A stretch of 64,000 nt of DNA from Deltaproteobacteria bacterium (GCA_029262455.1 JAJCZJ010000020.1:325078-389077); one strand, 5' to 3'; positions 28,908 to 46,892 are shown, counted from the first letter of the stretch. Numbers and translations are program-made. The notes: a model not told the origin generated them from the sequence alone.

Positions 28908-29405
28908 GTTTTCGGCGCCGGATTGAAGTGCGAAAACACATAGCGGCCGGAGAGGCAGATGTCAGCGACCGAGGACATCGGGGGTAGTGGGTCACTTTGA
29001 TCCTGAGCTCGGCGCAACCGGAGCGAAGTTGGGAGGGCACGGCACCGCCGAGCCTTTCCGGGGTGGAGTCTTGTCACAGCTACCACCCGCAGGAGCTATG
29101 CGCGGCTCGGCGGCGCCGCGCCCTCCCGGGACCCGGCTGCTCCCGTCCGCTTCGATCAAACCGACCCACCACCGGACATCGAACGCGGTACGCGTATTCT
29201 CCCTCGAAGGCCCGTTCCAAGGCGGCCTCATTCACACCCCGGTCGTAACGCAGCAAGGAGCCGTCTGCATACGCGCGCTGCGCTGTTTCCGGGTCTATGG
29301 AAATGCCACTCCGTTCCGCATTCATTTCCGTCATTTGCAGTTTCCGACACAAACCAATCCGCCCTCTTGCGGAGCCACCCAGGTCGCGCCAGGATCGCAT
29401 CCCTT

Positions 29406-30590
29406 ATGCCGAAAGAAGAGATCGAGGTCGAGGTTCGGGTTCGGCTGCGCGGAGGGCATTCCTACGATCTCACCCTATCATCCAACTCCGCTCTTCTGCG
29501 CGACTTGATCACGACGCTCGGCGGGTCGAGAAACTCGGTCCAGCCCCGACTCTTCCAGCTACCCCTCGACGGCGGCCAAACCTCCGCAACATTCGCCAGC
29601 GATCAGATATCAGCGATCGACACCCGTCCGCCACTCGACTGGAACACCATCACAACTGGTACGGAAGAGCGGTCCGCAAAAAGCCTCGGCGATGGTCCGC
29701 CTCTCGTCCTACGCGGCGCCCGCAACATTACACGCCAGCCATCCTACGAGGCAGCAGAGCGACGAGCGCGGCGGCTGATGGAACCGTTCGTGGCGCATCG
29801 ACAAGCCCGCCGTGCCGCACTGAAGAGCACTTGCGACGAGCTCGGCGGAAACACCTTCGTCGTCTCCCCCTTCAACCAAGGCTTCGTCCCGCTACTGCGC
29901 AACTGGGCCGCATCCTGTGATCGTTCCGGCATCGACTGCCGCGCCAGGACGGTACTGTTTCCGACCGACAACGGCGCCGACACTGCAGCACGCGAGCTCG
30001 GATTCGCAACCCTCTTCGACGGCGTCTCGTTTGACGGTGCCCCGCGCGACGCTATCAAAGTCTACGGGGACGCCCACTTTGCCGATTGTGTCTTCGCCAA
30101 GCTCGGCGCAGCAATCGACATGCTCGCTCTCGGCTACGACATCCTACTCCAGGATATGGATCTCGTCTGGTTCAAAGACCCGCTCCCCGGACTCAAAACT
30201 CGAGCGATGGCCGACGATCTGGACTTACAGTTCATGCGCGACATGAATCCGCGCTTCCAGCCGCTGTACTACAACTCCGGCTTCGTATTTATGCGCAACA
30301 ACGAATTCACCCGCCAAACCTGGAACACCATCTTCGACGCCTTTGCGGCGGTCGTGTTCTACCGCTCCGATCAAACCGTCGTGAACCAGGTCGTCGACTG
30401 CTACAAAGAGCGAGGATTGCGAGCCGCCCGTCTTCCAGATCGCTACGTAGATGGACAACTGCTGATCCGGGCCCAAACAAAACGCCGGCCTCTACCGCCA
30501 GATTCGATCGTGGCTCACGTCAACTGGACCGGAAACCTTGCCGAGAAGATCGCTCGGCTCAAAGCACTCGAACTGTGGTTCATCGACTGA
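29406..30590 (+). CDS. Unassigned N-terminal ~75-aa domain fused to a GT77/PF03407-like nucleotide-diphospho-sugar transferase
   Basis: ORF 29367..30590, ATG 29406. ILLQDMDLVWFKDPLPGL (DxD) and PLYYNSGFVFMRN are typical of Nucleotid_trans/GT77. N-terminus is described in the findings. Confidence 0.65.
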   Translation: MPKEEIEVEVRVRLRGGHSYDLTLSSNSALLRDLITTLGGSRNSVQPRLFQLPLDGGQTSATFASDQISAIDTRPPLDWNTITTGTEERSAKSLGDGPPLVLRGARNITRQPSYEAAERRARRLMEPFVAHRQARRAALKSTCDELGGNTFVVSPFNQGFVPLLRNWAASCDRSGIDCRARTVLFPTDNGADTAARELGFATLFDGVSFDGAPRDAIKVYGDAHFADCVFAKLGAAIDMLALGYDILLQDMDLVWFKDPLPGLKTRAMADDLDLQFMRDMNPRFQPLYYNSGFVFMRNNEFTRQTWNTIFDAFAAVVFYRSDQTVVNQVVDCYKERGLRAARLPDRYVDGQLLIRAQTKRRPLPPDSIVAHVNWTGNLAEKIARLKALELWFID

Positions 30591-30673
30591 TCGATGCAAA
30601 TCACTTGCCGTGTCACAAGTTTTCCCCTTTTAAGCTTGACAGGAAGTCAGCGAACGTCGAGACTGCCTCCCGG

Positions 30674-31942
30674 ATGCCGACATTTGTTGGCGACACCTTA
30701 CCGGAGGCGCTTCGAGCCTTGGACTGCTCAAAATCCATCGAAACTCGTGTCCTGCCGCGCGCAGTGGCCTTCGGTCGCTTGCTTCTCGCTATCGCGGCGG
30801 CACTTGCCGTGGTGACAGCTCCGCATAGGGCGCCGGCAGCCCAGATCAAGTTCACGGGATTTGCCCAAATCAACGGCGCCCCGAGCGGACCGTTCGCAGC
30901 ATTCACAATGAATGAGGTCGTCGATATGACGATCACGATCGACGAGACTACGGCCGATTCGAATGGCGCCGGCGGCGCCGGATCATACAGCGATCCGACC
31001 TCGACCGCATTGTTCGAGGGACAGACCTCCGTGCAGATGGTCACTTTCACCGGCTTCGGCTTCGAACTCCTCGATTCGACGCGACTCGACCCGGCCAACG
31101 GCCTCGTCTCATCGAGCCCGAGCGCGGCGTACGTCGAGGACTGGGACCTGACCAACCTGTCGCCGATTTCGAACGTCGACGACCTTCCGACCATCATTGC
31201 CGAGTTGCCCAATGTGAACATTGGAACCGTCAGCGCCAACTTTTCGATACAACAACTGCCCGCCGGCCCGACCACGCTCTTCCTCGGGCTCAAGCCAACC
31301 GTCACGGTCACCGACTTTTGCGGCAACGGCATCGTCGAGGCCCCGGAAGCGTGTGACGATCCGGTGTGTTGCAACCCGACCTGCACCGCAATCATAGCGA
31401 ACGGAACTGAATGCCGCGCTTCAGCCGGCGTCTGTGATGTGGCCGAGACCTGCAGCAACGGCGCATGCCCCGTCGACGGCTTCGCCTCGATCGGCACCGT
31501 GTGCAACCCGTCATTGGGCGTCTGTGATCCAGAGGAAGTGTGCAGCGGCTCGAGCGCGGAATGCCCGCCGGACACGCTGACTCAGTTCACCTGTGGCACG
31601 ATCTGCGGCGCCCCGGTAGACGAGTGCGACGTTGCCGACATCTGCGTCTCCGGCAACGTCGATTGCCCACCGATGGGGACAATGTGCACACCGACACCGG
31701 TTCCGACTCCGACGCCCACGCCCGTTCCCGAAAATGGGTCCGGGGACGGGGCTTGCAGCGACGGTCTCGACAACGACAACGACAACCTCATCGACTGCGA
31801 CGACCCTGATTGCCTCGACGTCGAGGCATGCGAAACCGTGCACGCACCGACGCTCTCGCCAGGTGGATTGACGATCACCGTGCTCATCCTCGCCCTCATC
31901 GGCTTGTTGGCGATGGGGCGGGCAGTGCTCCGGAAGAACTGA
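30674..31942 (+). CDS. Secreted Cys-rich protein with disintegrin-like motifs, a PT linker, a DxDxD motif and an IPTL-CTERM-like tail
   Basis: Inner part of ORF 30086..31942. Start is ATG 30674 or GTG 30764 (MAFGRLLLAIAAALAVVTA signal). CGNGIVEAPEACDD, three copies of C-x5-CD-x2-E-x-C-x(4,5)-CP-x-D, TPTPVPTPTPTPVP, DGLDNDNDNLIDCDDPDC, APTLSPGGLTITVLILALIGLLAMGRAVLRKN. Confidence 0.7.
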   Translation: MPTFVGDTLPEALRALDCSKSIETRVLPRAVAFGRLLLAIAAALAVVTAPHRAPAAQIKFTGFAQINGAPSGPFAAFTMNEVVDMTITIDETTADSNGAGGAGSYSDPTSTALFEGQTSVQMVTFTGFGFELLDSTRLDPANGLVSSSPSAAYVEDWDLTNLSPISNVDDLPTIIAELPNVNIGTVSANFSIQQLPAGPTTLFLGLKPTVTVTDFCGNGIVEAPEACDDPVCCNPTCTAIIANGTECRASAGVCDVAETCSNGACPVDGFASIGTVCNPSLGVCDPEEVCSGSSAECPPDTLTQFTCGTICGAPVDECDVADICVSGNVDCPPMGTMCTPTPVPTPTPTPVPENGSGDGACSDGLDNDNDNLIDCDDPDCLDVEACETVHAPTLSPGGLTITVLILALIGLLAMGRAVLRKN

Positions 31943-31962
31943 CGGCCGAGGTGCCTGATCAA

Positions 31963-32469
31963 ATGAGCGACTCCAAAAAGACAAGAAAGCAGCTAATCGA
32001 AGAACTCGAACAACTTCGTGGTCAAGTCGCGCAGCGACAGCAGTCGCAGTCGGACAACAGTGCACCGGCGCTTGCCGGCGACGTTTCACGACGCACCGCG
32101 CTAAAGGTCGCCTGGACCGCGCCGGTCATTTTGGCAATCCCTCTCCAGGCCGATCGCTCTGGCGCCCAACCTCCGGTCGGAACGGTGGCCCCGGGCTGTC
32201 CCACCATGACCCCGACCAACGCGGCCCCTCCGACTAGCTCGCCGACCTTGTTCCCAACGACCGCTGAGCCGACGATTTCGCCGACTCAACCAGTCCCGAC
32301 CACCAGGTTGCCAACGTCCAGTCCCACGAACGACCCGACATTGCGTCCGACCACCAGCCCGACGATCCCTGCCCCGACGGCTATGCCGACGGCGAGGCCG
32401 ACCACCAGCCCGACGATCCCTGCTCCGACGCTTTCCCCGACCCCTGGTTTCCCGACGCTTTCCCCGTAA
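31963..32469 (+). CDS. Pro/Thr-rich small protein with a conserved N-terminal helix and an SRRTALK Tat-like motif; candidate substrate/precursor 1
   Basis: Inner part of ORF 31810..32469, ATG 31963 lies 20 nt after the upstream stop. MSDSKKTRKQLIEELEQLRGQV...DVSRRTALKVAWTAPVILAIPL, then about 90 aa with about 26 Pro, mostly as P-T. Paralog of 45413..45892. Confidence 0.7.
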   Translation: MSDSKKTRKQLIEELEQLRGQVAQRQQSQSDNSAPALAGDVSRRTALKVAWTAPVILAIPLQADRSGAQPPVGTVAPGCPTMTPTNAAPPTSSPTLFPTTAEPTISPTQPVPTTRLPTSSPTNDPTLRPTTSPTIPAPTAMPTARPTTSPTIPAPTLSPTPGFPTLSP

Positions 32470-32473
32470 TCAT

Positions 32474-32520
32474 CGGCGGTCAGCCCGCAATTCGGTTGAG
32501 AAACCGCCGTCGCTTTCTTC
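32474..32520 (+). terminator. Weak stem-loop directly after the candidate precursor gene (possible attenuator)
   Basis: CGGCGGT (32474-32480) pairs with ACCGCCG (32503-32509) across a 22-nt loop, followed by TCGCTTTCTTC. Not a canonical intrinsic terminator. Confidence 0.2.
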
Positions 32521-32611
32521 AGAGGACTTTCATCGTCCCCGCCCAATCGTGTCGAACACCATACCGGGCCTCATCCGCGTCAGCGCAAGCACCGTTCCGA
32601 AAAGCTAGCAA

Positions 32612-33976
32612 ATGTCGTCAGGAAACAGCGTAGAAACGCCGCCTACCAACTCTGGAGACTCCCCACGAGCACGGGGTGCGGCGGCTCGGCGGGTACGTCC
32701 GCGGCAGCGGGGCGGGCTCGAGACTTTCGAAGTACACAACGAAATCGTCGTGCTTCCCGGCGAGGGGGACCGCGTTTACGCGCTGAACGAGTCCGGTAAG
32801 GAGATCTTCGGCCTCTGCGACGGTCGCCACACCCTAGAGGCAATGGTCGACCAACTGGCGTCGAGGTACGACGCGCCTGACGTCGCGATCATGGGCGACG
32901 TGTCCGCAGCGATATTCGACCTCCACGGCCTCGGGCTGGTCGATATTCCTCCACCGGCTGACGCAGCTGCATCGATCGAGCCGCAGACCTCGGTCAAGGC
33001 ACGACCCAACGTGCGTTTCGTCTTCGGCATAGAGGACGTGCCCTATTTCCACTGGCAGCTTGCCATCCTCTTCGAGTCGCTCGTCGGCCAATTGCCCGAC
33101 GGTTGGGACGTCACCGTCGTCGTTTGCAACGACGAAGCACCGATTTCCGACGAGCTCATGAAGATCGTTTCCGAGTACGGTGTTCGCATCATGACCGGCA
33201 CCAGTCTCGCCGATCGCCACAGTCTCGACTTCGCCGGCGGCGGTGATCGCTACGTTCCGATGAACCGAGTCGAAGCACTCAGCGTCATTCGGCAAATCGT
33301 CGAACCCGAAGACGTCGTTTGCCTTCTGGACACCGACGTCTTCCTGTACGGCAACCTTCAAGAACAACTCTTCCCGACCGGCAACGCAATGGCCCGCAAC
33401 TGGATCATCTCCGAAGATCGGTACTTCGCGTTCTCGACCAACAACGAACGAGGACTGTCGCTCCCGAAGCTGCTCGAAGCCCTGGGGTGCGAGCAGGAGT
33501 TCAAACCCGGTGGCGTAGCGGTCTTCTTGACGGGAGAGACGATCCAACGCGAGCGCGTCATCCCCGACATTTTCCGTTTCCTTCAGGTTCTGTTCCTGCT
33601 CGGGAAAATCGTCGACGCACCAGCGCACGGCGTTTGGGTCGCCGAAATGGCATGCTTCGCAATGGCCATGTACCCCAACGAAATCGACTACGAGCTTCTC
33701 GACATCCCGCAATTCGCCGTCCAGGAGCAGCATGCTGAAGTCGCCCCCGACGGTTCGTTCTTCCACTACTACACCGACATCAACGACGGCGGGGGATCAA
33801 ATGGTCCGTTTTTCGAATCGCAGTGGCATAAACAGTTATTTCACCAGTCCAACATGCTCCTCGAAGACTTCGACAGCTTCAGAGTGAACGCCAAAGGCCG
33901 CCTCGAGCAGCGCTTCTTCGAAATCGCCGACAAGGCGAGAAAGCGCCTTTACGGCATCGAACGCACGGGCAAGTAG
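32612..33976 (+). CDS. PqqD-like domain fused to a GT95/GT96-like (HPAT / peptidyl-Ser galactosyltransferase-like) glycosyltransferase
   Basis: PqqD-like VYALNESGKEIFGLCDGRHTLEAMVDQLASRYD...AIFDLHGLGLV. GT part: FVFGIEDVPYFHWQLAILFESL, VVCLLDTDVFLYG, VWVAEMACFAMAMY. Confidence 0.6.
   Translation: MSSGNSVETPPTNSGDSPRARGAAARRVRPRQRGGLETFEVHNEIVVLPGEGDRVYALNESGKEIFGLCDGRHTLEAMVDQLASRYDAPDVAIMGDVSAAIFDLHGLGLVDIPPPADAAASIEPQTSVKARPNVRFVFGIEDVPYFHWQLAILFESLVGQLPDGWDVTVVVCNDEAPISDELMKIVSEYGVRIMTGTSLADRHSLDFAGGGDRYVPMNRVEALSVIRQIVEPEDVVCLLDTDVFLYGNLQEQLFPTGNAMARNWIISEDRYFAFSTNNERGLSLPKLLEALGCEQEFKPGGVAVFLTGETIQRERVIPDIFRFLQVLFLLGKIVDAPAHGVWVAEMACFAMAMYPNEIDYELLDIPQFAVQEQHAEVAPDGSFFHYYTDINDGGGSNGPFFESQWHKQLFHQSNMLLEDFDSFRVNAKGRLEQRFFEIADKARKRLYGIERTGK
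32717..32947 (+). other. PqqD-like (RRE-type) domain, copy 1, N-terminal
   Basis: aa 36-112 of ORF 32612; pattern L.LN..g..IW.LCDG..T..EI...L matches PF05402 by eye. Confidence 0.6.
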
Positions 33977-33980
33977 AGCC

Positions 33981-34598
33981 GTGTTGTCAATGTTCGATAC
34001 GCCCGCACACCTCGAGCAGCAGACGCGCGAGCAACAGGCCGCAGCCCGGTACTGCGGGCTCGGCTTCAAAAAGGCCACGCTGCCCTCCGAGGTCTTGCAA
34101 CGGTTGCGCCAACACCTGGAAACGAACAGCCGCCGATTCCGCGCCGAGGAGCCCATCGACTACCTCGTCAACCCGGACCCCGGGAAGATTCCGGCCCTTT
34201 ATTTCGAGGACAAAGAATTCAACGCCACCCTAAGTCGCGAGCTACAAGGATTGCACGAAGAGTGGGCCGGAAGGAGTCTGACCGAGTCCGCCTGCTACGG
34301 CATCCGCGTCTATCAACGCGGCAGCTTTCTCTACAACCACGTCGACCACACCGACACACACATCATCAGCTCTTCGATCTGCGTCGACCACCGCCTCGAC
34401 AAGCCGTGGCCCCTCTACGTCGAGGATATCGACGGCAATCCCCACCAGATCGATCTCGACCCTGGCGACATACTGTTCTACGAGGGAGCCCGCCTGCGAC
34501 ACGGCCGTGCCTATCCACTCGAGGGTGACTACTACGCATCCATTTTCGTCCACTATCGACCCGCAAATCTCTGGTCTTCGCGGCTCGTTGGCACCTAG
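33981..34598 (+). CDS. 2OG-Fe(II) oxygenase, prolyl 4-hydroxylase-like
   Basis: YGIRVYQRGSFLYNHVDHTD (HxD) and distal GDILFYEGARLRHGRAYPLEGDYYASIFVHYRP. Lies 4 nt after the upstream stop. Confidence 0.7.
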   Translation: MLSMFDTPAHLEQQTREQQAAARYCGLGFKKATLPSEVLQRLRQHLETNSRRFRAEEPIDYLVNPDPGKIPALYFEDKEFNATLSRELQGLHEEWAGRSLTESACYGIRVYQRGSFLYNHVDHTDTHIISSSICVDHRLDKPWPLYVEDIDGNPHQIDLDPGDILFYEGARLRHGRAYPLEGDYYASIFVHYRPANLWSSRLVGT

Positions 34599-34640
34599 TC
34601 GCCGATTTCGTTAAGAACACCCGAAAACGCAGTATTACTC

Positions 34641-36644
34641 GTGAGACATCTACTCTATACAAACTACCAGTCCGGTCAGTCGGGTTTGAGCAACGGCATC
34701 ATGTCGATCGAGCTGGGCGTGGTCCTCGCGTTCCTGACGAATCGGTTTCTCCTGCTCGATGGCAACATCTCCCCGCCGGCCAATATCGTGTCGTACGGCG
34801 ATCGAGTCGACAACAGCCAGCCGAGCCGCGTCACCGACCTGATCGACCTACCGGTCGCCTGGAGTGAGCCAGGAAGCGTCGACGTGTCCAAGTTGCCGTT
34901 CCTCGAATTGAGCGACGACCATCTGGGGAGTGCCGCGTTCTATGTCCCCGGCACCGTCGACATCCGATCCGCCGACGCGGAAGCGTTCGCCAACGGCAGG
35001 ACAGTGTGGCTCAACGCTGGCGGCTCGCTCGACGAGATCCCGGTGCTGCGAGTGTCCGAGGATCACAGCAAAGACAATCTTCGATACAATCTCAACTACT
35101 ACTCGTACTTCTTCTACCTCGACGACGAAACGCGTCGCTCCGTCTACCGCATGCTCGAGCGGATGCAACCAAAGCAGGACCTAGGGGAGCTGGCGAAGCG
35201 CGTCGCCGGCGATCTCGGAGCATTCAACGCGGTGCACTTGCGACGCGGTGACTTCAAGGTGACCTATGGAGTCACCACCCTCGACCGTCAACCTTGGGAA
35301 GCAATCGAGGCGCTCGAGCATCACTTCAAACGCGACGACACTCTGGTCTTCGTGACCGACGAGCGCGACGACCCGTTCTTCGACGAGATCAAGAAGGTCT
35401 ATACGCATCACGTATTCATCGATCACCACATCCTCGACGACTACGAGAAGGACTTCGCCGCATTGCAGCACCGCGACAGCATCGCCTTGGCCTATCTTTC
35501 CCAGCTCGTGGCGGCCGAATCCGCCGACTTCATTGGCACCATGACCAGCACGTTCACCGCCATCATCCAGCGCTACCGCGGCAATCGCGGCAAGGCCGAG
35601 AGTTTCAAGTACCTTTGGAACGAGCTCCCGGACGACGGCGATCGTCTCGAACGCGGCCGTCATCCGGTTAGTGAGTGCGTCCCGATGGACCGCGGCATGA
35701 TGGTCGAAGAGTCGTCGGGTCCGTACTCATGGAATCGCTACAACAAGAGGATCGCCGCCAACTGGATGCGCGAATGGCCCGAAAGTTTTCTGACCCAAGA
35801 GAGCCTCGAAACCGGCAAATTGACGACCGGGGCCAGCCCCGTTGCCCGCCCCATCGTTCTGGTTCGTCCCGAAAGGACGAAAGTCGAGGTCGCGTTCGAC
35901 GGCTTGAGCATCATTCTAAACTCGCAAGTGCCTCGCGTTGCGACCAAGCTGAGCGAAGCCTTCGAATCACGCCAAGCTGCGAGTCCAGCGAACGTCATCG
36001 GGGAGTTCGAGGTTGCTGAAGAAGACGGCGACTTCCGTCTTCTGCAACGCGGCCAGGAAATCGCCACCGCAGCAAGCTACGAGGAGTTGGCGCGCACGTT
36101 AAAACTCCGCATGGTGCCGATCTTTGTCGGTGCGCGCCGCCGGCACGTGTGGCTGGAAGCTTTTTCCTTCCGTAGAGCAGGCCATGCGCTGGTTCTCGCC
36201 GGCGACATGGGTCCTCCATCGGACTGGCTGCCGGACGCCATGTGCTCGAACGGCTGGGAGCTGCTGTGGGACGAGATCGTCCCGATCCGCCTGGAAGACT
36301 GTACCGTCACACCGTTCGGCCGCACGACCTGGCCGAAGGGCGCAGCCCTGCGCATCGACCGTACGCCCTGTCGCGTCAGCGGCCTGATCGTCACCAGCCG
36401 ACAAGTCCAGCGCCGCGACACCTTGACCGTCTTGTCCCCAGCCACCGGGGTGGCGGAGTTGATCGGCCGCTGCGTCGACTTCCGCACCGACCGCAAGCGG
36501 GCGGTAGAACGCCTGTGCAAGCTGGTCGAGAAACGAACCGTAGGCAGACTGTCCTTCAGCCGCGCCGAGACCGCTGTCGATCTCCTCACGCGCCCCTTCC
36601 TCGACGCGGAGCGTGAGTCCGCCCACGGTACAAAGTCTGCATGA
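34641..36644 (+). CDS. O-fucosyltransferase-like (PF10250-type) GT domain fused to an HprK-related-kinase-like domain with a degenerate P-loop
   Basis: GLSNGIMSIELGVVLAFLTNRFLLL, FNAVHLRRGDF, ADFIGTMTSTFTAIIQRYRG. C-terminal half: VEVAFDGLSIILNS...HVWLEAFSFRRAGHALVLAGDMGPPSDWLPDAMCSNGWELLWDEIVPI. Confidence 0.55.
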   Translation: MRHLLYTNYQSGQSGLSNGIMSIELGVVLAFLTNRFLLLDGNISPPANIVSYGDRVDNSQPSRVTDLIDLPVAWSEPGSVDVSKLPFLELSDDHLGSAAFYVPGTVDIRSADAEAFANGRTVWLNAGGSLDEIPVLRVSEDHSKDNLRYNLNYYSYFFYLDDETRRSVYRMLERMQPKQDLGELAKRVAGDLGAFNAVHLRRGDFKVTYGVTTLDRQPWEAIEALEHHFKRDDTLVFVTDERDDPFFDEIKKVYTHHVFIDHHILDDYEKDFAALQHRDSIALAYLSQLVAAESADFIGTMTSTFTAIIQRYRGNRGKAESFKYLWNELPDDGDRLERGRHPVSECVPMDRGMMVEESSGPYSWNRYNKRIAANWMREWPESFLTQESLETGKLTTGASPVARPIVLVRPERTKVEVAFDGLSIILNSQVPRVATKLSEAFESRQAASPANVIGEFEVAEEDGDFRLLQRGQEIATAASYEELARTLKLRMVPIFVGARRRHVWLEAFSFRRAGHALVLAGDMGPPSDWLPDAMCSNGWELLWDEIVPIRLEDCTVTPFGRTTWPKGAALRIDRTPCRVSGLIVTSRQVQRRDTLTVLSPATGVAELIGRCVDFRTDRKRAVERLCKLVEKRTVGRLSFSRAETAVDLLTRPFLDAERESAHGTKSA

Positions 36645-37630
36645 CAGACCAAGCAACCGCACCGCGCCAGATCGACATCCGCATCTCCACCATCGGCGGG
36701 CACGAGTATCGGTTGAATCTCCGCGAAGACGCCGTCCATTTGCGCGACCTCTTTACTCGATTCGTCAACCGACCGGCGACTGGGGCTGTCCGAGCTCCTG
36801 AATTCATCCAACTGCCCCTCGACGGAGGCAACGCTTCCTGCACGATCGCCGTCGATCAGATTGTGTCGATCGTCACCACGCCACCAGTCGTCATCGAAGT
36901 GCAACAACCCGCCGTCGAGCCAAACGTAATTCCAGATGTGCCGGCAGTGGTCGCGCCACCCCAGATCCGGCGCGCACACTACACGGTGATCGACGACTTT
37001 CTCACCGTCGATGAGCACCGAGACATGCTGGCGTTGGCATTGAGCGAGAAGGACAGCTTCGAACCCGGTACGGTGCAGGGTGAACCGAGTCCACACCGAC
37101 GAAACAGCGTCATCATGAACTTCGCAGACTCGGCGCACGGAACACTGCTGACAAGTCGTCTGCTCGTTTGGTTTCCATTGATCGCAAAGGCGCTGAAGGA
37201 ACCACTGTTTCCGCTCAAGACGGTCGAGTCGCAACTGACCGCCGCCAACGACGGAGACTACTATAAGCCTCACCTCGATACCGACGGGAAGACCCCCGAT
37301 TTCCGGGTCATCGCGTGCGTCTACTATTTCTTCCGCGAGCCAAAAGGGTTCACGGGCGGCGACCTACGCCTCTATGATTCCATCGAAACAGGTGGCGAAA
37401 TCTGTCAGGCGGATTCCTTCCAAGACATTCGGCCGGCAAGCAATCGCTTGGTCGCATTCACCTGCGAGACCTTCCACGAGCTGCTCGCGACTCGCTGCCC
37501 GTCCAAGGATATCGAAGACAGTCGTTTTGCGGTGACCGCGTGGTTTCACCGCAGCGGCGCACCGGACCCCGACGCCAAGTTCGGTTGGGGACATTATCGT
37601 TGCGGCGAAGTTCCGGAGGCACTGCGGTGA
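36641..37630 (+). CDS. Unassigned N-terminal ~80-aa domain fused to a 2OG-Fe(II) oxygenase (PF13640-like)
   Basis: ATGA overlap with the upstream stop. YYKPHLDTDG (HxD), GGDLRLYD, NRLVAFTCETFHEL, RFAVTAWFH. Confidence 0.7.
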   Translation: MTDQATAPRQIDIRISTIGGHEYRLNLREDAVHLRDLFTRFVNRPATGAVRAPEFIQLPLDGGNASCTIAVDQIVSIVTTPPVVIEVQQPAVEPNVIPDVPAVVAPPQIRRAHYTVIDDFLTVDEHRDMLALALSEKDSFEPGTVQGEPSPHRRNSVIMNFADSAHGTLLTSRLLVWFPLIAKALKEPLFPLKTVESQLTAANDGDYYKPHLDTDGKTPDFRVIACVYYFFREPKGFTGGDLRLYDSIETGGEICQADSFQDIRPASNRLVAFTCETFHELLATRCPSKDIEDSRFAVTAWFHRSGAPDPDAKFGWGHYRCGEVPEALR

Positions 37631-37802
37631 GCAACGCGAGGGCTCGCTGCTCGAGACCACCGATCCTCGCGCTTTCGACCAAAGGTAGCGAAGGCGCGCC
37701 CCCCGCCGCACCGGGTACTGTCATCAGCAGCCGGCGAGTCAGCCACCTCGCTTTCGCAGGCTTGACCGAAGCCCCCGGGATCAGAGGCAGAGTGCGTTTG
37801 TC

Positions 37803-38930
37803 ATGATCTTCACGGTTTTCGTCGCACCGGTCGAACCAACGCAACAGTGGCGTGCCGATCTCCTCGAATACTCATGGCGACGCATCAAGCAGAGCGGCGA
37901 ACTGATCCGGCTGGCGCCAACCGCCCCCGGACGCGCACCAGGTAGCAGAGGGAGAGTCGGGAGAACCGTCAAAACGTTCGACTGGAACCCCCACCCGTAC
38001 ACCCAGGACGTGTACGCCGGCTATCAGACAACCGCCGGCGTACTCGAGTGGTTGTTCAACGAGCCGGCCGAAGGAACAGTCCTTTTGCTGGATTCGAGCT
38101 GCATCCTACGCCACCCGGTTACAGCAGAGGTCGAACCAGGCCACGTGCGCGGGTCGTCGTGGCCGGAGATCCCACTTGGCACGGACGGCCCATTCGGCCT
38201 GCATGATGATCTGAAGTTTCTCGAATCCTATTGCGTCAACCGCAAGCTCCCCCTCGCTCCCGTGCGGATGCCGATTTTGATCCACACGGCGGACCTGCGA
38301 AAAATCGCGGCGCGCTGGCTCGAGCTTACGGCGTTGATTCGATCCCATGCCGTAGGCGTTCACGGAAAATACCTTCATGCAGATCGCGTCGCCTACACCG
38401 TCGCCGCCGCCGAATACCGCATCCTCCACACCCTTGACGACCTCGGCACTACGACGTCGGATACCGGCAAAGACGTTCCGATCGTCGACTACAGCACACC
38501 GATCAAGTCCAAACAGGGAGAGATCGTCTGGGACCGAAAGGTCTATCGACCATGGGAGGCAGTCTACACCGAAAATGCGCGCGCAGGCGCAGGCAGAGAC
38601 GTACTCGGGATCCTGAACGAGATGGTGACGCGCCGCGAATCGGGAGCCGAGCTTGCGGCAACACGTCCACAGCGGTGCTACGGGGTGCGGGAAGCACGAA
38701 TTCTCGACGACATTCATCTCGAAGTACCTGGGTGTGCCGACTTGATGTCGCTGAATCAATCCGCGGCTGCCATCTGGGAGCTGTGCAACGGCGAGAACAC
38801 ACTCGCCGAGATCGTCAGCGAGCTCGAGAGACAATTCGACGCGTCACGCGAAACCCTCATGACATCCGTCGAATCGACGGCGAGGGATTTGGAAAGCTCA
38901 GGTGCCATCGAGCTGGAGGAGCTGTTCTGA
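37803..38930 (+). CDS. GT95/GT96-like glycosyltransferase fused to a C-terminal PqqD-like domain
   Basis: IFTVFVAPVEPTQQWRADLLEYSWRRIKQSGELIRL, AGVLEWLFNEPAEGTVLLLDSSCILRHPV, ILIHTADLRKIAARWLELT, ADRVAYTVAAAEYRILH. C-terminus: LMSLNQSAAAIWELCNGENTLAEIVSELERQFD. Confidence 0.6.
   Translation: MIFTVFVAPVEPTQQWRADLLEYSWRRIKQSGELIRLAPTAPGRAPGSRGRVGRTVKTFDWNPHPYTQDVYAGYQTTAGVLEWLFNEPAEGTVLLLDSSCILRHPVTAEVEPGHVRGSSWPEIPLGTDGPFGLHDDLKFLESYCVNRKLPLAPVRMPILIHTADLRKIAARWLELTALIRSHAVGVHGKYLHADRVAYTVAAAEYRILHTLDDLGTTTSDTGKDVPIVDYSTPIKSKQGEIVWDRKVYRPWEAVYTENARAGAGRDVLGILNEMVTRRESGAELAATRPQRCYGVREARILDDIHLEVPGCADLMSLNQSAAAIWELCNGENTLAEIVSELERQFDASRETLMTSVESTARDLESSGAIELEELF
38679..38927 (+). other. PqqD-like domain, copy 2, C-terminal
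   Basis: Last ~82 aa of ORF 37803..38930. Confidence 0.6.
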
Positions 38931-40156
38931 TGGCATCCAAAGCAAAACCAAGCGCCAAAAAGTCCGTGCCGACCACAAAAACAAAGCACGCAGCAAAACG
39001 TGCCAAAGCCTCGGCCAAGAAAACAGCCAAAGCGCCGCCCGGAAAAGCCACGACAGCACGGGCGAAGAAGACCACCAAGACTCCGGCCTCCAAGAGCCCC
39101 AAAACCCGGACCCAAAGGACCCGGGCCCAAAAGCCCCGGGCCCGCAAAGCCGCGCTCAAAGTATCGCAAACGGTGTCGCCCAAAGGATCGCAAACGACTT
39201 CGAAGACGGAGCGAACGACCCCATCGCCTCGCGCAAAGTCGCGGCAGGCCACAAAACAACCCCAGATCTTCGTGTCGATCGCCTCCTACCGCGACCAGTT
39301 TCTTCACTTCACCATCGAGTCGGTGCTCAAACAGGCGACGTACCCAGAACGGTTGACCTTCGGCCTCTGCTGGCAAGCCGACGACACCGAGCAACTCGAT
39401 CAATACCTGCACGATCCGCGTTTCCGCATTCGCAAGTACCCGTACTACGCGAGCCTCGGCTACGGTTGGGCAAGAGCCGAGATCCAAAAACTATACGCCG
39501 GCGAAGAGTACCATCTACTGATCGATTCTCACACGTATCTCGCCAAGGGGTGGGACGAGAATCTGATCGCGCAACTCGAGAGCAAGCCGGGCGAGAAGCC
39601 GCTACTGACGACCAGCTCACCCCCTTTCACCTTCGACAATGACGGCAACGTCGTAATCCCGTGGCAAGGGACCGAACACGACGGCGTGCCGCTGATGAAG
39701 TGCGCACGAATCCAACCGGCAGGGTGGGTCGACATCCAGATGTCCAATGAGCGCAAGTCCACCAAACATCAAACCACCGGATTGGTGTGCTGTAACTTTG
39801 TCTTCACGCACGGGGCTTGGATCCGCGAAGTGCCCGAGGATCCGGCGATGATCAACGCCGGCCACGAGTCAGCCCTTTCGGTTCGTACCTTCACCCACGG
39901 ATACGACATCTACCTGCCCGACGAAATTCAAATCTGGCACCTCGACTACAACAACTACCCGAACGGTGAGCGCAACAAGGTATGGGAAGCAAAGTCCGAC
40001 AGTTGGCAGTCTGAGGGCACCGAGATCATGCTGCGGCGGCTGCAAGCGCTGTTCTACAACCGCGGCGACCGCGCCTCGCTCGGCCGCTACGGACTCGGTC
40101 GATCCCGCACCGTAGCCGACTGGGCGGAGATCACCGGACTCGACCTCAGTGACTGA
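38930..40156 (+). CDS. Lys/Ala/Thr/Pro-rich basic N-terminal extension (~111 aa) fused to a GT60 Gnt1-like (PF11397) glycosyltransferase
   Basis: Inner part of ORF 38552..40156. ATGA overlap with the upstream stop, GGAGGAG SD at 38915-38921. MASKAKPSAKKSVPTTKTKHAAKRAKASAKK..., then QIFVSIASYRDQFL, LLIDSHTY. Confidence 0.65.
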   Translation: MASKAKPSAKKSVPTTKTKHAAKRAKASAKKTAKAPPGKATTARAKKTTKTPASKSPKTRTQRTRAQKPRARKAALKVSQTVSPKGSQTTSKTERTTPSPRAKSRQATKQPQIFVSIASYRDQFLHFTIESVLKQATYPERLTFGLCWQADDTEQLDQYLHDPRFRIRKYPYYASLGYGWARAEIQKLYAGEEYHLLIDSHTYLAKGWDENLIAQLESKPGEKPLLTTSSPPFTFDNDGNVVIPWQGTEHDGVPLMKCARIQPAGWVDIQMSNERKSTKHQTTGLVCCNFVFTHGAWIREVPEDPAMINAGHESALSVRTFTHGYDIYLPDEIQIWHLDYNNYPNGERNKVWEAKSDSWQSEGTEIMLRRLQALFYNRGDRASLGRYGLGRSRTVADWAEITGLDLSD

Positions 40157-41942
40157 CGTCGACTCCGCACTACTGCCAATTCCCCAACCCGAGTGGCGTG
40201 CTTCTTTATCCGGCGACGGCGCGGCAGTTGATGTCCTGATTTTAAGCAAGGACCGCGCCTGCCAACTCGACGGACTGCTGCGCACGATGCGCGCGTTCCT
40301 GACCATCCCACACCGGAAATACGTACTGTACAAGACGTCTAATTTGGCGTTCGAGCGCGGCTACGACATGCTCCGCCGGTGGAATCCCGAGGTCGAGTTC
40401 ATCGACGAGGCGCAAACGTTTCGACAATGCTACCTCGACCTCGTGGCAAGGATCGCCGCCGGGCCTGGTCGCTACTGGATGCCGGTGATGGACGACATGA
40501 TCTTCACTCGCACGTTCACCGCACAGCCACTCATCGACCTCCTCGACACAGACGAGGACGTGCTGGCGATCTCTCTGCGCCTCGGCGAGAACATTACCTA
40601 TTGCTACACCCGAAACGCTCCAACCACACCTCCGGACTTCAGCAACGGACACCGTTGGGAATGGAGAACAGCCAGCCCAGGCTACTGGAACTATCCAATG
40701 TCCGTCGACGCCAACATCTACCGCACGGCGGAAATGGCCGAATACATCCCGACCCTCCAATTCGGCAAGGCTGAAGTCATCGAGGCACGCATGGCCGGGG
40801 TGCCCTTGAACCGCCCCCATATGCTGTGTGAACCGACCCCCAGCGTACTCAATCTCGCGATCAACCGCGTTCAACACACCTTCAAGAATCGGCACGGCAC
40901 AATCACGCCAGAAGCCCTGAACGGCGCTTTCCTCGCGGGTTTCGCGATGGATGTGCGCCCGTTGCTGGGTCGAACCTTCAACGCCTGTCACGTCGAGGTC
41001 GAGCTGTCCTTGGTCCCCGATGCGCGCGAGCGCCCCGGCGCAACGCCCCTCTCTTCGACCGGCTGGAAACCACAGCGAAACGGCGCCGTCGTCGTGACCG
41101 AGAGCCATGCTGTCGTGACGCTCAAGAGGAACGGAACGAAGCTCAAACTCAATCAGAGCGCCGAAGAGATCTGGAAACTGTGCGACGGAACACGAACGCC
41201 CGAGGACATCCAAAACGAGCTCGCGCAACATTTTGACGCAACCCCGCGCCAGCTTCACAGCGGCGTACGAAGCGCCCTGGCGAATTTCATCAATCACGGC
41301 CTTCTCCGTCAGGAACGCCCGGAAGGCGCATACCGCCGCATCGACCTGCGCCAGATTCCCTGCTTCGTGATCAATTGCGAAGCCGATGCTGAGAAGGACA
41401 CGTTGATGAAGCGTCAGCTCGCTGAGCTCGGGATACCGTACGAACGTGTACCCGGGATCGCCGCAAGCCCGGATTGGGTCGGCGTCGCGCTGTCGCACCT
41501 CAAAGTGCTTCGCCTGACCCGCTCGACGACACCCTTCCTGGTGCTCGAGGACGATTGCTTGTTCAACGACCGCTTCCAACCAGTGTGGCAAGTACCGGTC
41601 GAGGCCGACGCCCTGTATCTCGGCGTTTCCGAGTTCGGCCTCGAGACCCCCGGTCACTTCAGCTGGGGCCGCCGGCGCAAGAACCAATGGAGACCCTACG
41701 ACCGGTCCTTCCTCCGCATTTTCAACATGCTCGCACGCCATGCGGTCGTGTACCTTTCCAACGACTACTGCGAGCAAGTCATCCAATCGCAAATCGAAGC
41801 ACTGACGAATCGAAGTTTGCCGTACCCTGGGGACATCGGCTGCGCGATGCTGCAAGCATCGCACGTCGTCCTGACCCCGAACGAACCGATCTGCCGGCAA
41901 ACCGGTCGTGACTCGACCGTGCGTCCGTTGCCGGAGCTCTGA
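40149..41942 (+). CDS. Three-domain protein: GT-A-like domain, central PqqD-like domain, GT25-like domain
   Basis: VDVLILSKDRACQLDGLLRTM; central KLKLNQSAEEIWKLCDGTRTPEDIQNELAQHFD; C-terminal IPCFVINCEADAEKDTLMKRQLAELGIPYERVPGI...FLVLEDDC. Confidence 0.6.
   Translation: MTDVDSALLPIPQPEWRASLSGDGAAVDVLILSKDRACQLDGLLRTMRAFLTIPHRKYVLYKTSNLAFERGYDMLRRWNPEVEFIDEAQTFRQCYLDLVARIAAGPGRYWMPVMDDMIFTRTFTAQPLIDLLDTDEDVLAISLRLGENITYCYTRNAPTTPPDFSNGHRWEWRTASPGYWNYPMSVDANIYRTAEMAEYIPTLQFGKAEVIEARMAGVPLNRPHMLCEPTPSVLNLAINRVQHTFKNRHGTITPEALNGAFLAGFAMDVRPLLGRTFNACHVEVELSLVPDARERPGATPLSSTGWKPQRNGAVVVTESHAVVTLKRNGTKLKLNQSAEEIWKLCDGTRTPEDIQNELAQHFDATPRQLHSGVRSALANFINHGLLRQERPEGAYRRIDLRQIPCFVINCEADAEKDTLMKRQLAELGIPYERVPGIAASPDWVGVALSHLKVLRLTRSTTPFLVLEDDCLFNDRFQPVWQVPVEADALYLGVSEFGLETPGHFSWGRRRKNQWRPYDRSFLRIFNMLARHAVVYLSNDYCEQVIQSQIEALTNRSLPYPGDIGCAMLQASHVVLTPNEPICRQTGRDSTVRPLPEL
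41079..41315 (+). other. PqqD-like domain, copy 3, internal
   Basis: aa 311-389 of ORF 40149..41942. Confidence 0.6.
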
Positions 41943-41977
41943 TCGAACGAGCCGTTCCTCCAAGCCGGATCCATACA

Positions 41978-44900
41978 GTGAAAAAGGGCACAATCCACGA
42001 TCTCTTCTCCCGCACCGCTTGCGTCGTGTCCGACAGGCACCGATTCATCTATTTGACGGCGCAAAACGCCACGTCTTCCCTGAAGGCCGAGCTGTCGAAC
42101 GAGCACTGCGGCGGCGTTGTCCTCGCCCGCGCACAGGTGGCTGATAAACTCTGGAACCAATACTTTACGTTCGCCTTCCTGCGCGACCCGCTGACGCGCT
42201 TTCTCTCCGCCTATCAGGAAGTGTCTCTGCACATGGAGCGTGACAAACTCGAACCGCGCCCTTTCGGCCGGATGCCCGACGGCCTCGATCGCTTTCAGGC
42301 ATTTCTCGCGGACGTCGAGCAGAACGGTCCGTGGAACGAGCACATTGCACTCCAGCTAGCCTTCGTCGAGCGCCGAAGAATCGACTTTTGGGGGCTCGTC
42401 GAAACGCTGCAAGACGACTTCCAACAAATCTACACCCGGCTGGGATTGGGGACCTGTCCCGTTCTGCCAAAACGCCGCTCTCGCAGCGGCCGTGAGGAAA
42501 AGGACGGCATCTCGCGCTTCGCCTTCCATCCGGAGGACCTCGATGCGACGACAATTGAGCGCATCTACGACCTCTACCGTGAGGACGTCTTGCTGATTCG
42601 AGCGGTTCGCCCCGACGCACCTGAAATGCAGCCGCACTCAACCCGTGCCGCACCGCCCCCCGGAATGGTGCAGGTGGCGATCGCCCTGGCCAACGGCGGC
42701 GAATACTCCCTCGAACTTCCGCCCGGCCAACCAGAGCTGGGCGCTCTGCAAGCTGTGGTATCACCACAACAATCCGATGGACGTTTTCTCGGCCCGCAAG
42801 TTCTGCAGGTTCCACTGCGTGGTGGCAATTCCGCGCTGACGTTTTCCACGCAGCACCTCGTTCGTCTCGAGCTACGCCCCCCCGACGCCCGAGAACTGCG
42901 CCGAATCGAGGCGCCGGCCACCGGCACGGGCAACTCCGGAGTGAATCTAATAAACGTCGGGAACAAGCGGCCGCCAACCGAGGACCCATCGAGCAATATC
43001 GACGAGGCGCATCTCGGTGGCTACATTCGTGCGGCCAATACACCGATTCTCCACAGCGCCGCAGGCCCACACGGGGACCGGGGAACCTGGAATCCGCTGC
43101 TGTGGCGTTGGGCAATCGAAGATCTCGACGTGCGATCAGTGATCGATATCGGATGCGGCGAGGGACACGCCGCCGGATTTTTCTCCGACGGCGGGTGTGA
43201 AGTGCTCGCGCTCGATGGCAGCCTTCAAGCGCGCTATTCCAGCGTTGTTCCAGATCGCCACGTCGTACACGACTTCGTCGAGGGACCTTTCGTCCCAGAG
43301 AAAAGCTTCGACATGGCCTGGACCTGCGAGTTCGTCGAACACGTCGAGGCGCGTTTTCTCCACAATTTCCTGGCTACGATCGCATCGAGCCGCAAGTACG
43401 TGATGATGACGTTCGCCAGCCCGACACAAACAGGCTGGCATCACGTCAATTGCCAAGAACAGGGTTACTGGGTCGATCAGTTGGGACGCCTCGGGTTTCG
43501 CCTGGACGACGATCTAACCGAGAGAGGCCGAGCCTTGGCTCACTCTCATTTTCGCGAACGTGGCCTGGTCTTCGTCCGGCACCATCGAAAAGGCGAGTCA
43601 TCGAAGTCCACAGAACCGTCGCTGCGCGCGACTGCCGAGAGTCACTGTCTCGACCCGCTGCCGGTCCAATCCATGCAGGTCGCACAGCGCGAGAGCGATG
43701 CCTTCTACCTGTTTGTCGACATCTTCGTGCATCCGACCGCACCGAGAATCGTGGCGATCTCACCACCCTATGGCGAAGACTGGAATCCTAACGTTGTCGG
43801 CATCGACTACGATGCCGTCGACCTTGTATTCGGTGACATACGCGTCCGCGGCCGCTGCCTGCGGCACCGTCTCGACTCCTGGGAGCCTTGCATGCTTCTC
43901 GAGTTCGAGGACGAAGACCTAACAGAGCGCATTCGGGCCAACGACGAGATCAACGTCACGATCGAGGCCGGCTCGCATTCGTCGTCCTTCGTCCTGACGA
44001 CCCGCCCAGCGCCAGCCTACGATGTCGCAATGAGCCTCGTCGTACGCAACGAAAACCGCTGGATCCGCACGTTTCTCGACTACTACCTCGACTGCGTCAA
44101 AGCCGACCACGTCTTCATCTACGACAACGGAACGTCGGAACAAGACCAGCTGCTTTCCATTCTTCACCCGTACCGAGAGCGCGGGCAAGTGACGTACATC
44201 CCGTGGGATTTTCGCTGGCGCAACCGCATCGACCGCAAGATGATCGGCCAACCGACACAGGAGGCTCACTCCCTTGCAAGATTCGCAAACACCGGGTGGA
44301 TCGGCTTTCTCGACATCGACGAGTTCCTGCGCTTGCCGCACAGCACCCTGCCACAATTTCTCGCTCGCTTCGCGTCCGCGGAGGTCGACGGACTCTCGTT
44401 CGGTATCCGGTGGTTTTCTTACGAGGGCCCGCTTGCACTCGATGAGATTACGAGTGTGCCACTGCAATTCCTCCACTCGCGCCGCAATGAGCTCGGCCGA
44501 AAACGGCAGAAGTTCTTCGTCAAAGGCGGCGGCTCGAAGTTTCTTCGCTTGCATTGGCTCGAAGACGGAGGTCGCGAACTGCCCATCGACGACACCGAGA
44601 TCTACTTTCACCACTACGATCAACGTCCCGGCCGTTTCGAAGAAGGAAAGCAAATCGGAGGAGCGCGCGACGAATACATGCTGCGCTTCGCCGACCAGCT
44701 CTCGCGCCCCGAGCGGCACAGAGCCCCTCTAACCGAGAGAGGATGGATCACCCACATCAACTCTTCGATCGAACGCGCCGAACGCGACACCTCCAAACTC
44801 ACCCCGGAAGTCCTCGCCGTCGACGGCATGTGCGGGCGCTACACCCGTCACTTCTACAACAACCTCTGCAGCTTCGGAGGATGCCGCTACCTCGAGATCG

Positions 44901-45385: not shown

Positions 45386-45412
45386 AAACGCCGCAAATAT
45401 CGAAACCGGGAA

Positions 45413-45892
45413 TTACTCCTCGCCCTTGGTTTCTTTTCCCACGGGAGCCGGTCGGCCCTCGTCGTCATCCGAAGCAATGAGCTTTTTAGCACCGAAGCCA
45501 AAGAGCGCCGCTGCGGCCACAGCCGCGGCGCCGCCTGAAACCACAGGCGCATCGACTGCTGCCTGAAAGGCGGTCGGAACCGCCGTACTGGGAAGGCCCG
45601 GATCGAGGACCGTCGGGACCTGCGTCGGTGCGGCAGTAGGATTGAGGCAAAGTGACGGCGAATTGGTACATTGCGTCGTCCCAGCTTCGACAGGCGCGAC
45701 GAATCCAAGATCAGACGAGACCGGTACCGATAAGATCACCGGCGTTACCCAGGCAATCTTGAGCGCCGAGCGCCTTGAAATATCGTCGGAAAAAGTCGGC
45801 CGCGCCGCCTTCCCGTCCGTCACCAGCTCGCCCCGCAGCCGCTCGATCTCCTCGAGAAGCTCCTTTTTCGTCTTCGTTCCGTCACCCGCCAT
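45413..45892 (-). CDS. Pro/Thr-rich small protein, paralog of 31963..32469, with a C-terminal hydrophobic anchor and acidic tail; candidate substrate/precursor 2
   Basis: ORF 45413..45997 trimmed to ATG 45892, which has a GGAGAGGG SD upstream. MAGDGTKTKKELLEEIERLRGEL...DISRRSALKIAWVTPVILSVPV, P/T/S/A-rich middle, GGAAAVAAAALFGFGAKKLIASDDDEG. Confidence 0.65.
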   Translation of the reverse strand: MAGDGTKTKKELLEEIERLRGELVTDGKAARPTFSDDISRRSALKIAWVTPVILSVPVSSDLGFVAPVEAGTTQCTNSPSLCLNPTAAPTQVPTVLDPGLPSTAVPTAFQAAVDAPVVSGGAAAVAAAALFGFGAKKLIASDDDEGRPAPVGKETKGEE

Positions 45893-46048
45893 TATAGACC
45901 CTCTCCAATGCTGCCGCTGCCATAGCAAGAATCCGACCCAAATCCCAGGCCTGCGACATCGATTTCCTGGATTCGCGGTGAGACACCCCCTGCGCACTCG
46001 TAGCAGCGGCTCGGCAGCCTATCCCGATCAAGTGGGAGAATGGGCGTG

Positions 46049-46744: not shown

Positions 46745-46759
46745 GGGGATTCTATGTGT

Positions 46760-46878: not shown

Positions 46879-46892
46879 GTTGGGCAAAAGTT

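Follow-up and report, generated by a model that had tools for sequence, protein, structure and literature searches.

A previously unannotated domain shared by unrelated tailoring enzymes of a deltaproteobacterial gene cluster, and its possible role in docking

Three otherwise unrelated enzymes, encoded in a 64,000-nucleotide stretch of DNA from a Deltaproteobacteria bacterium (GCA_029262455.1, JAJCZJ010000020.1:325078-389077; the whole stretch is called the window here, and positions are counted from its first letter), share a segment of about 80 residues; it represents a genuine domain family, which is conserved but had not been annotated before, and will be referred to as the module. The module is portable between catalytic folds and independent of the partner to which it is attached, and its partners are protein-tailoring enzymes. 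In the broad sense it is likely to be a non-catalytic targeting or assembly domain; more specifically, we propose, with a probability of about 45%, that it is a tethered docking module, which holds tailoring enzymes on a shared acceptor, most likely a proline-rich repeat region. Accessory recognition domains decide the targets of tailoring enzymes, and searches for peptide-modifying pathways, as well as their engineering, commonly rely on the PqqD-type RRE; the module adds another accessory domain, unrelated to the RRE, which moves among hydroxylases, methyltransferases and glycosyltransferases. Here, we describe the evidence for the family, its architectures and distribution and its relation to the PqqD domain, and then weigh what the module may bind. 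The three copies in the window and their hosts are as follows.

29406..29639, plus strand: module copy 1, at the N-terminus of a GT77-like protein (hidden Markov model (HMM) envelope 29409-29639; matched with copy 2 by BLASTP)
36641..36892, plus strand: module copy 2, at the N-terminus of a prolyl-hydroxylase-like 2-oxoglutarate (2OG) oxygenase (folded core, residues 10-80)
42659..42883, plus strand: module copy 3, internal, at about aa 228-302 of a 1135-aa multi-enzyme (HMM envelope 42650-42889)
29406..30590, plus strand: host 1, 394 aa, module followed by Nucleotid_trans (PF03407, GT77 family, aa 181-385; Pfam E=3.9e-15)
36641..37630, plus strand: host 2, 329 aa, module, low-confidence linker and PHD-type double-stranded beta-helix oxygenase (PF13640, 2OG-FeII_Oxy_3, aa 198-303)
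41978..45385, plus strand: host 3, 1135 aa, with, by Pfam, Sulfotransfer_2 (aa 10-206), module, Methyltransf_23 (aa 382-473), GT92 and Methyltransf_24

A domain family on a predicted flexible tether

An earlier reading of the same DNA, made from the sequence alone (the sequence-only reading), had proposed a domain common to three otherwise unrelated enzymes, and its translations of 29406-29639, 36641-36892 and 42659-42883 were reproduced exactly. The reading frames and starts of the hosts match public gene calls, and the 394-aa and 1135-aa products are present in the public protein collection. In pairwise BLASTP with compositional matrix adjustment, copies 1 and 2 match with E=3e-18 and 42% identity, copies 1 and 3 with E=3e-9 and copies 2 and 3 with E=1e-10, whereas the three host proteins, once the module is masked, have no mutual similarity (best E=0.16). 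The possibility, raised in the sequence-only reading, that significance might be lost after composition correction is thus not borne out, the similarity staying significant at E-values from 3e-18 to 3e-9. When the 64-kb window is scanned in six-frame translation with an HMM built from the three sequences, no copy beyond the three is detected, the runner-up having E=1.1, and Pfam agrees with the placement given earlier, in front of the GT77-like and 2OG oxygenase domains and between the sulfotransferase and methyltransferase domains. Family-wide, the core can be written as L.GG(h)...l.L..d.p.L..L....l.Q.P..gG..a..F....lv...t.PP, so that the shared core of the pattern first described is real, while the tyrosine of its GGxxY element is not conserved across the family. 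Mean column identity of the module across phyla is 52%, compared with 51% for the full-length module and oxygenase alignment. That the similarity reflects chance, low-complexity sequence or a common linker can hardly be entertained, as the E-values are corrected for composition, the predicted fold is confident and the conservation reaches across phyla; an origin as linker or low-complexity sequence was rejected on the composition-corrected BLASTP E-values and on the confidence of the AlphaFold2 model described next.

This model was computed from a 61-sequence alignment, and for the module on its own it has a mean pLDDT (predicted local distance difference test) of 90 and a pTM (predicted template modelling score) of 0.76. 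Copy 2 is predicted to consist of strands at residues 10-17 and 22-28, a helix at 32-42, a variable loop, and further strands at 55-60, 65-70 and 74-80. In the model of the full-length 329-aa host 2, the module forms a separate globule, followed by a stretch with a pLDDT of 54 (about aa 85-105) and then by the oxygenase; as the full-length pTM of 0.68 approximates the share of the chain that the catalytic domain makes up, no confident or fixed packing between the domains appears to be predicted. The linker varies from 3 to 70 aa (median 17) in a set of 158 distinct module-oxygenase proteins, and alanine and proline make up 38% of it. As modelled, the module is an autonomously folding domain on a flexible Ala/Pro-rich tether.

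The sequence-only reading did not recognise the family, and this holds across Pfam-A, NCBIfam, PDB sequences and PDB folds. No model in Pfam-A (2025) or NCBIfam (2026) covers the module in 61 members, with E-values up to 10 admitted, and in the Pfam scan of these sequences at that threshold no family was matched recurrently. Profile searches of all PDB sequences gave no match to the module, and Foldseek comparison with PDB structures returned nothing better than E=0.2, which places the fold matches at noise level; a known ubiquitous linker or fold, which had been named earlier as the alternative, was thus not matched in Pfam-A, NCBIfam or the PDB. The strand order (E-E-H-E-E-E) is compatible with beta-grasp or ubiquitin-like folds, including SLBB, and in three dimensions no solved beta-grasp structure was matched by Foldseek in the PDB. 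Rv3208A/TB9.4 of Mycobacterium tuberculosis (PDB 7rur) has 10% identity to the module and lies outside the Foldseek matches with E<0.2; it differs in being a free-standing protein, solved as a hexadecamer, and the titles and abstracts of the literature yielded no functional study of it. Judged by its sequence, the module is a family of its own, absent from Pfam-A and NCBIfam, and no paper describing the module or the bacterial cluster system was found in the literature.

These predictions bear on the idea that the module is a small-molecule or regulatory sensor, which tunes the adjacent enzyme. Its conserved glycine turns (GG-H and D-G-G) could, together with a conserved histidine and glutamine, form a small pocket, but the models predict no confident packing on the catalytic domain, a flexible linker of widely varying length is ill-suited to allosteric coupling, the attached enzymes are chemically unrelated and the fold matches are no better than noise. 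We consider such a sensor very improbable.

Architectures, partners and distribution

The module is invariably located directly N-terminal to a catalytic unit, which is a 2OG oxygenase in 214 cases, a class-I methyltransferase (Methyltransf_23) in 15, a GT77 domain in four and a GT92 domain in one. Its identity is 0.34-0.37 within partner types and 0.30-0.35 between them, and its nearest neighbours are often attached to another type of partner, so that modules do not cluster by catalytic partner. The combination of module and methyltransferase is a free protein of about 280 aa in Luminiphilus syltensis and part of multi-enzymes of 1,200-2,300 aa elsewhere; these giant single chains have exactly one module each, always right before the methyltransferase unit. 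Since the four partner folds use differing co-substrates (2OG, S-adenosylmethionine and nucleotide sugars), the module cannot be a cofactor site, and the element shared by its partners must be the acceptor or a complex or assembly. Module-bearing candidates of less than 200 aa were considered as free-standing module proteins and rejected as gene fragments: in nearly all such library matches, the module is followed by the linker and the first part of the oxygenase or by garbled sequence, so that they provide no good evidence for a free-standing module.

By far the most frequent partner is represented by host 2, which, by its fold and active-site residues, is predicted to be a PHD-type prolyl 4-hydroxylase (P4H) acting on peptidyl-proline. 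H211, D213, H279 and R295, invariant in 38 sequences, correspond to the HxD...H iron triad and the 2OG-binding arginine, and Foldseek matches the host 2 model to the Pseudomonas putida P4H (4j25, E=9e-12), Dictyostelium PhyA (6t8m) and human PHD2, with E-values from 9e-12 to 1e-9; phmmer against 6t8m gives E=1.9e-5. All of these Foldseek matches align over about 200 columns, the catalytic part having about 225 residues, and hence none covers the module.

One module protein per locus is found in 48 of 60 loci, a count that bears on the idea that the module is a self-association domain, forming dimers or oligomers and thereby multimerising enzymes or clustering those that bear it. In the model, a five-stranded sheet with one helix leaves a face free for such contacts, and conservation independent of the partner suits self-contact as well as it suits a shared ligand. 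The helical domain that fills the N-terminal slot in Lyngbya-type orthologues could equally be a dimerisation element, and the collagen P4H alpha subunit carries an N-terminal dimerisation domain. With only one module protein in most loci, however, the joining of different enzymes via module-module contacts is not a general role, and the giant multi-enzymes, in which the activities are already joined, still keep their single module. On balance, self-association seems to us unlikely.

Related loci were gathered with the full-length module and oxygenase alignment as query. In a word-indexed search, the module is present in 93 of 99 homologues of the 2OG host; the same kind of search started from the three-sequence alignment of the module came back empty, which is attributed to the 5-residue index, as the database contains these 93 module-bearing proteins. 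An exhaustive HMMER profile search of 1.84 billion cluster representatives gave 142 matches at E<1e-3 and 81 at E<1e-10, and a search seeded with a cyanobacteria-like member gave 1,855 homologues at E<1e-20, with the module in all 117 of those newly listed. The listed homologues include proteins from complete genomes of Nostoc, Westiellopsis, Aliinostoc and Thermocoleostomius, which are annotated merely as proline hydroxylase or 2OG oxygenase. Species-representative genomes with a module-oxygenase belong to Binatia, Nitrotoga, Polyangia, Acidobacteriota, Actinomycetota, Stellaceae and many filamentous cyanobacteria, and gammaproteobacterial carriers are Luminiphilus syltensis NOR5-1B, Elongatibacter, Halieaceae and Congregibacter; the module is also recorded from Myxococcota. 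The best match among the species representatives is to a Candidatus Binatia metagenome-assembled genome, at 59% identity. Among cyanobacterial orthologues of the oxygenase, 24 have no domain in the N-terminal slot or have unrelated small domains there. The replacement domains are uncharacterised; one is helical (...SIETLESLL.SPD...KAEIAFKILE...) and another has a GYW.T..EL motif, and the orthologues with such domains are in loci L072, L074, L075, L078, L083, L067, L071, L073, L076, L059, L064, L065 and L079.

A profile of the module would be of practical use. With it, well over a hundred cyanobacterial 'proline hydroxylases' (up to about 1,850 homologue clusters) could be annotated, and it would flag conserved, unstudied clusters in Binatia, Gammaproteobacteria, Myxococcota and Acidobacteriota, which pair leader-bearing Pro/Thr-rich precursors with a PHD-type prolyl hydroxylase and GT60, GT77, GT92 and fucosyltransferase-like enzymes; among these are families by which hydroxyproline is glycosylated in eukaryotes. 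The module is also a defined object of about 80 residues for binding, structural and deletion work in cultured hosts such as Luminiphilus syltensis NOR5-1B and Nostoc.

The module and PqqD domains in the surrounding cluster

The cluster that surrounds the three hosts, at about 29400-47900, encodes, besides the PHD-type prolyl hydroxylase, two GT60 enzymes, GT77, GT92 and O-FucT-like enzymes, two sulfotransferases, methyltransferases and three PqqD-fused proteins; GT77 and GT92 are known from plant cell-wall glycan synthesis. The proteins on which the comparison with PqqD relies, and the putative precursors, are as follows.

31963..32469, plus strand: putative precursor 1, 168 aa, with a helical leader, SRRTALK and WTAPVILAIPL motifs and then xPT repeats
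32612..33976, plus strand: 'PqqD-A' protein, with an N-terminal PqqD/RRE domain (PF05402, aa 44-110); adjoins precursor 1
34641..36644, plus strand: O-FucT-like protein with a C-terminal HprK-related/ScmC-like domain; elsewhere often fused directly upstream of module-2OG
37803..38930, plus strand: 'PqqD-B' protein, with a C-terminal PqqD domain (PF05402, aa 314-369); directly downstream of module-2OG in the conserved operon
40149..41942, plus strand: glycosyltransferase-like protein with, by Pfam, an internal PqqD domain and a weak GT25-like C-terminus
45413..45892, minus strand: putative precursor 2, 159 aa, with the same leader (leader HMM E=3e-16), a P/T-rich region and a C-terminal transmembrane helix

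The conserved operon has the order small open reading frame, N-terminal-PqqD protein, protein of about 205 aa, O-FucT-like/HprK-ScmC-like protein, module-oxygenase and C-terminal-PqqD protein, and is followed by GT60 (PF11397), an epimerase and further transferases. Precursors of this family have a helical leader (K-T-K-E-E-L-L-A-E-I-E-A-L-R), then a (S/T)RRxxL...W(V/I)APVILS(V/I)P segment ending in AxA, and then Pro/Thr/Ala-rich repeats, often with a C-terminal membrane helix. The family occurs in 25 cluster-type loci, with two copies in the window, and in 24 other loci lies just upstream of the core operon; these leader-bearing Pro/Thr-rich precursors are probably the substrate of the whole cluster. 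Unannotated members elsewhere include those at L002 5562-6047 and L004 5090-6118 and in more than 20 further loci. Against the twin-arginine translocation (TAT) signal models in Pfam and NCBIfam, four precursors gave no match at E up to 1, and the Tat-like (S/T)RRxxLK-type motif with its hydrophobic stretch and AxA is therefore only a lead.

The module and PqqD are unrelated, and neither makes the other redundant. Three proteins of the window have a PqqD domain and three others the module, and none has both, while in other genomes the two occur in single chains, ordered module-2OG-PqqD in P0101, P0106 and P0242 and PqqD-...-module-2OG in P0127. PF05402 matches the module neither in the three hosts nor, at E up to 10, in the 61 module sequences, and hhalign of the module profile with the PqqD profile of the window gives a probability of 0.1%. 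RRE domains have a winged helix-turn-helix fold with three helices and a three-stranded sheet, whereas the module is predicted to have five strands and one helix. Co-variation was assessed in 24 loci by a partial Mantel test on distance matrices, in which divergence of the oxygenase catalytic domain was controlled; 12 tests were made, and partial Mantel tests are prone to false positives. The divergence of PqqD-A follows that of the leader (partial r=0.41, p=0.0004), whereas that of the module does not (partial r=0.07, p=0.27), which speaks indirectly against leader reading by the module. A divergent RRE was rejected on the hhalign result, the different fold, the co-occurrence in single chains and the lack of co-variation with the leader. 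As an observation apart, the chains in P0101, P0106 and P0242, like that at L088 3514-4749, represent a minimal cluster variant, in which a separate PqqD-B protein is missing.

The same comparison bears on two further ideas. One is that the module is an adaptor, which docks its enzyme on another pathway protein (the PqqD-B/RRE-leader complex or the HprK/ScmC-like domain), the precursor being reached indirectly. It would account for the finding that the module and PqqD-B co-vary more than the catalytic-domain baseline predicts (partial r=0.28, p=0.008, marginal after 12 tests), for the position of the PqqD-B gene directly after module-2OG in the operon, for the module-2OG-PqqD chains, which can be read as Rosetta-stone fusions, and for the HprK/ScmC-like domain repeatedly fused right before the module (P0108, P0120 and P0127; also noted at L088 1461-3491). 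However, the one correlation comes from a test prone to false positives, a fusion bearing both domains would not be expected to retain the module if PqqD-B were its ligand, and, in more than 30 loci of cyanobacteria, actinobacteria and Stellaceae, module-2OG is without PqqD or cluster proteins within 10 kb; we hold the adaptor role to be distinctly unlikely. The other idea is that the module is a second reader of the leader or signal, which binds the helical leader or the (S/T)RR...W(V/I)APVILS(V/I)P segment. Two conserved N-terminal elements of the precursor would then face two kinds of accessory domain in the cluster, a constant handle would suit early and late enzymes alike, and co-variation of the module with the RR/hydrophobic part is weakly positive (partial r=0.13, p=0.12). 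This is quite improbable, given that the module shows no significant co-variation with the leader, where the PqqD-A control is strongly positive, that module-bearing cyanobacterial enzymes have no such precursor nearby and that the Pro-rich proteins encoded beside some of them have a Sec-type signal instead of such a leader.

A proposed docking on a proline-rich acceptor

In the mechanism that we favour, the flexible Ala/Pro-rich tether would place the module immediately before the catalytic unit, and the module would dock the tailoring enzymes on a macromolecule common to all of them, most likely the proline-rich repeats of the acceptor. Docking would raise the local concentration and so let many repeats be modified in turn. 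In the cluster of the window, the PqqD/RRE domains would read the N-terminal leader of the precursor, with the module acting beside them rather than replacing them. We infer both that the module binds something at all and that a proline-rich acceptor is its ligand. The observations behind this choice are the differing co-substrates of the partners, the Pro-rich repeat proteins common to both genomic contexts and the lack of a general dependence on PqqD, leaders or other modules. With regard to the last of these, module-2OG is located amid housekeeping genes in more than 30 loci (in cyanobacteria, one Actinomycetota and Stellaceae), in which PqqD domains, leader-type precursors and further modules are all lacking within 10 kb, so that the module cannot generally depend on any of these. 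As to the Pro-rich proteins, these are (xPT)n precursors in the clusters and (Pro-Ala)n proteins in some cyanobacteria. A secreted (Pro-Ala)n PEP-CTERM protein is encoded directly downstream of the module-hydroxylase in Nostoc HK-01, Nostoc FACHB-152 and two Myxacorys loci, and the cyanobacterial Pro-rich neighbours have an ordinary Sec-type signal and no cluster-type leader. Candidate substrates of this (Pro-Ala)n PEP-CTERM kind are located at L084 7401-9188 (Nostoc sp. HK-01), L037 11395-12696, L032 1635-2867 and L036 11226-12167.

Several points weigh against docking on proline-rich repeats. SH3, WW, GYF and EVH1 domains, profilin and the substrate-binding domain of collagen P4H bind polyproline via an aromatic cradle, and the consensus of the module family has no conserved tryptophan or tyrosine and one phenylalanine at a conservation of at least 80%. 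The suggestion of the sequence-only reading, a second docking or substrate-binding module, fits the tethered globule, its place directly before a catalytic unit, the portability and the non-redundancy with PqqD. Of the two roles named there, contact with the P/T region or enzyme-enzyme assembly, either may apply; the Pro-rich neighbours of several cyanobacterial module-hydroxylases favour the former, while the missing Trp or Tyr disfavours a polyproline binder of the classical type. Late enzymes, which work on an already glycosylated chain (GT77 and the methyltransferase/GT92 enzyme), would profit more from a constant handle than from repeats, and the co-variation with PqqD-B and the module-2OG-PqqD fusions point, if marginally, to a protein partner instead. 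In addition, Pro-rich neighbours are not specific to the module, as they also occur beside module-less cyanobacterial orthologues, and in most cyanobacterial loci none lies within 10 kb. The presence of a Pro-rich protein was therefore rejected as a criterion for telling module-bearing from module-less oxygenases.

Some known systems invite comparison. Like the module, the PqqD-like RRE (PF05402) is a small accessory domain (about 70-80 aa) without catalytic activity, which is either part of a peptide- or protein-tailoring enzyme or encoded next to one; the module differs in its unrelated sequence, its E-E-H-E-E-E order and its lack of leader co-variation. The peptide-substrate-binding domain of the collagen P4H alpha subunit, which is separate from and N-terminal to the catalytic domain, binds the proline-rich substrate and aids multi-site hydroxylation, the same role as is proposed here; this domain is all-helical (TPR-like) with a tyrosine-lined groove, whereas the module is predicted to be beta-rich and has no kinship with it in sequence or fold, which makes it an analogue only. 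The likeness to PHD-type P4Hs (PPHD 4j25/4iw3, PhyA 6t8m and PHD2) concerns only the catalytic part of host 2 and leaves the module uncovered; PHD2 has an N-terminal MYND zinc finger, which is used for recruitment. Acceptor-targeting add-on domains of glycosyltransferases include the ricin-like lectin domain of metazoan pp-GalNAc-transferases and the WD40 propeller of Dictyostelium AgtA, a GT77 enzyme of the hydroxyproline-glycosylation pathway (PMC8724618). These are likewise appended non-catalytic domains, and copy 1 is also located on a GT77-family enzyme; in contrast to the module, which is N-terminal and shared with oxygenases and methyltransferases, they are C-terminal and of other folds and sizes. 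Neither in sequence nor in fold can the module be assigned to the RRE, collagen-P4H, MYND or lectin/WD40 analogues, and a function as an accessory targeting domain, structurally unlike the known ones, is plausible.

A bolder version of the docking proposal, which we regard as doubtful, is that the module represents a class of acceptor-recognition domain unrelated to RREs, which reads (X-Pro)n without an aromatic cradle and acts as the processivity handle of a leader-guided, cytoplasmic pathway of hydroxylation and O-glycosylation. If true, O-glycans, later methylated and sulfated, would be built on Pro/Thr-rich precursors before export, as a bacterial counterpart of the maturation of plant arabinogalactan-proteins and extensins and of protist Skp1 hydroxyproline glycosylation; the latter uses P4H, GT60 and GT77 families (PMC8724618), all of which are found in the cluster. 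A module that binds repeats could also be reused to target enzymes to proline-rich sequences.

Some further observations concern the precursors and the genes around them. Halieaceae-type precursors (L019, L024, L025 and L026) have a C-terminal IPVE(I/L)S(D/E)F(D/E)(I/V)(S/K) motif in place of the transmembrane helix; this motif may serve as an alternative signal for sorting or processing. Between the GT77 gene and that of precursor 1, a Cys-rich protein is encoded at 30668-31942 (plus strand), with an N-terminal hydrophobic segment, a TPTPVPTPTPTPVP tract, disintegrin-like or acidic double-disulfide repeats and a C-terminal transmembrane helix; it may be a second kind of substrate. At aa 417-650 or so, the O-FucT-like protein has a weak likeness to HprK-related kinase A (TIGR04352, 27.7 bits) and ScmC, and PDB sequence searches with the 205-aa protein, the N-terminal part of PqqD-B and the catalytic part of the GT77 enzyme returned noise only. 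The GT60 enzyme at 38930-40156 (plus strand) carries a Lys/Ala/Thr-rich, histone-H1-like N-terminal extension of about 150 residues, with a 15-bp repeat found by TRF at 39096-39143. A 21-bp tandem repeat at 46760-46880 (5.8 copies, 96% matches, sub-period 7, GTGACTG), which would read (HESPVTS)n in the longest open reading frame, is situated between the GT60 gene of the minus strand (46893-47900) and the probable start of the sulfotransferase gene. Three YfhO-like membrane proteins in tandem (16733-24116, plus strand) and an MBOAT acyltransferase (27498-28907, minus strand) are encoded immediately upstream of the cluster, which suggests further glycan or acyl modification of the envelope.

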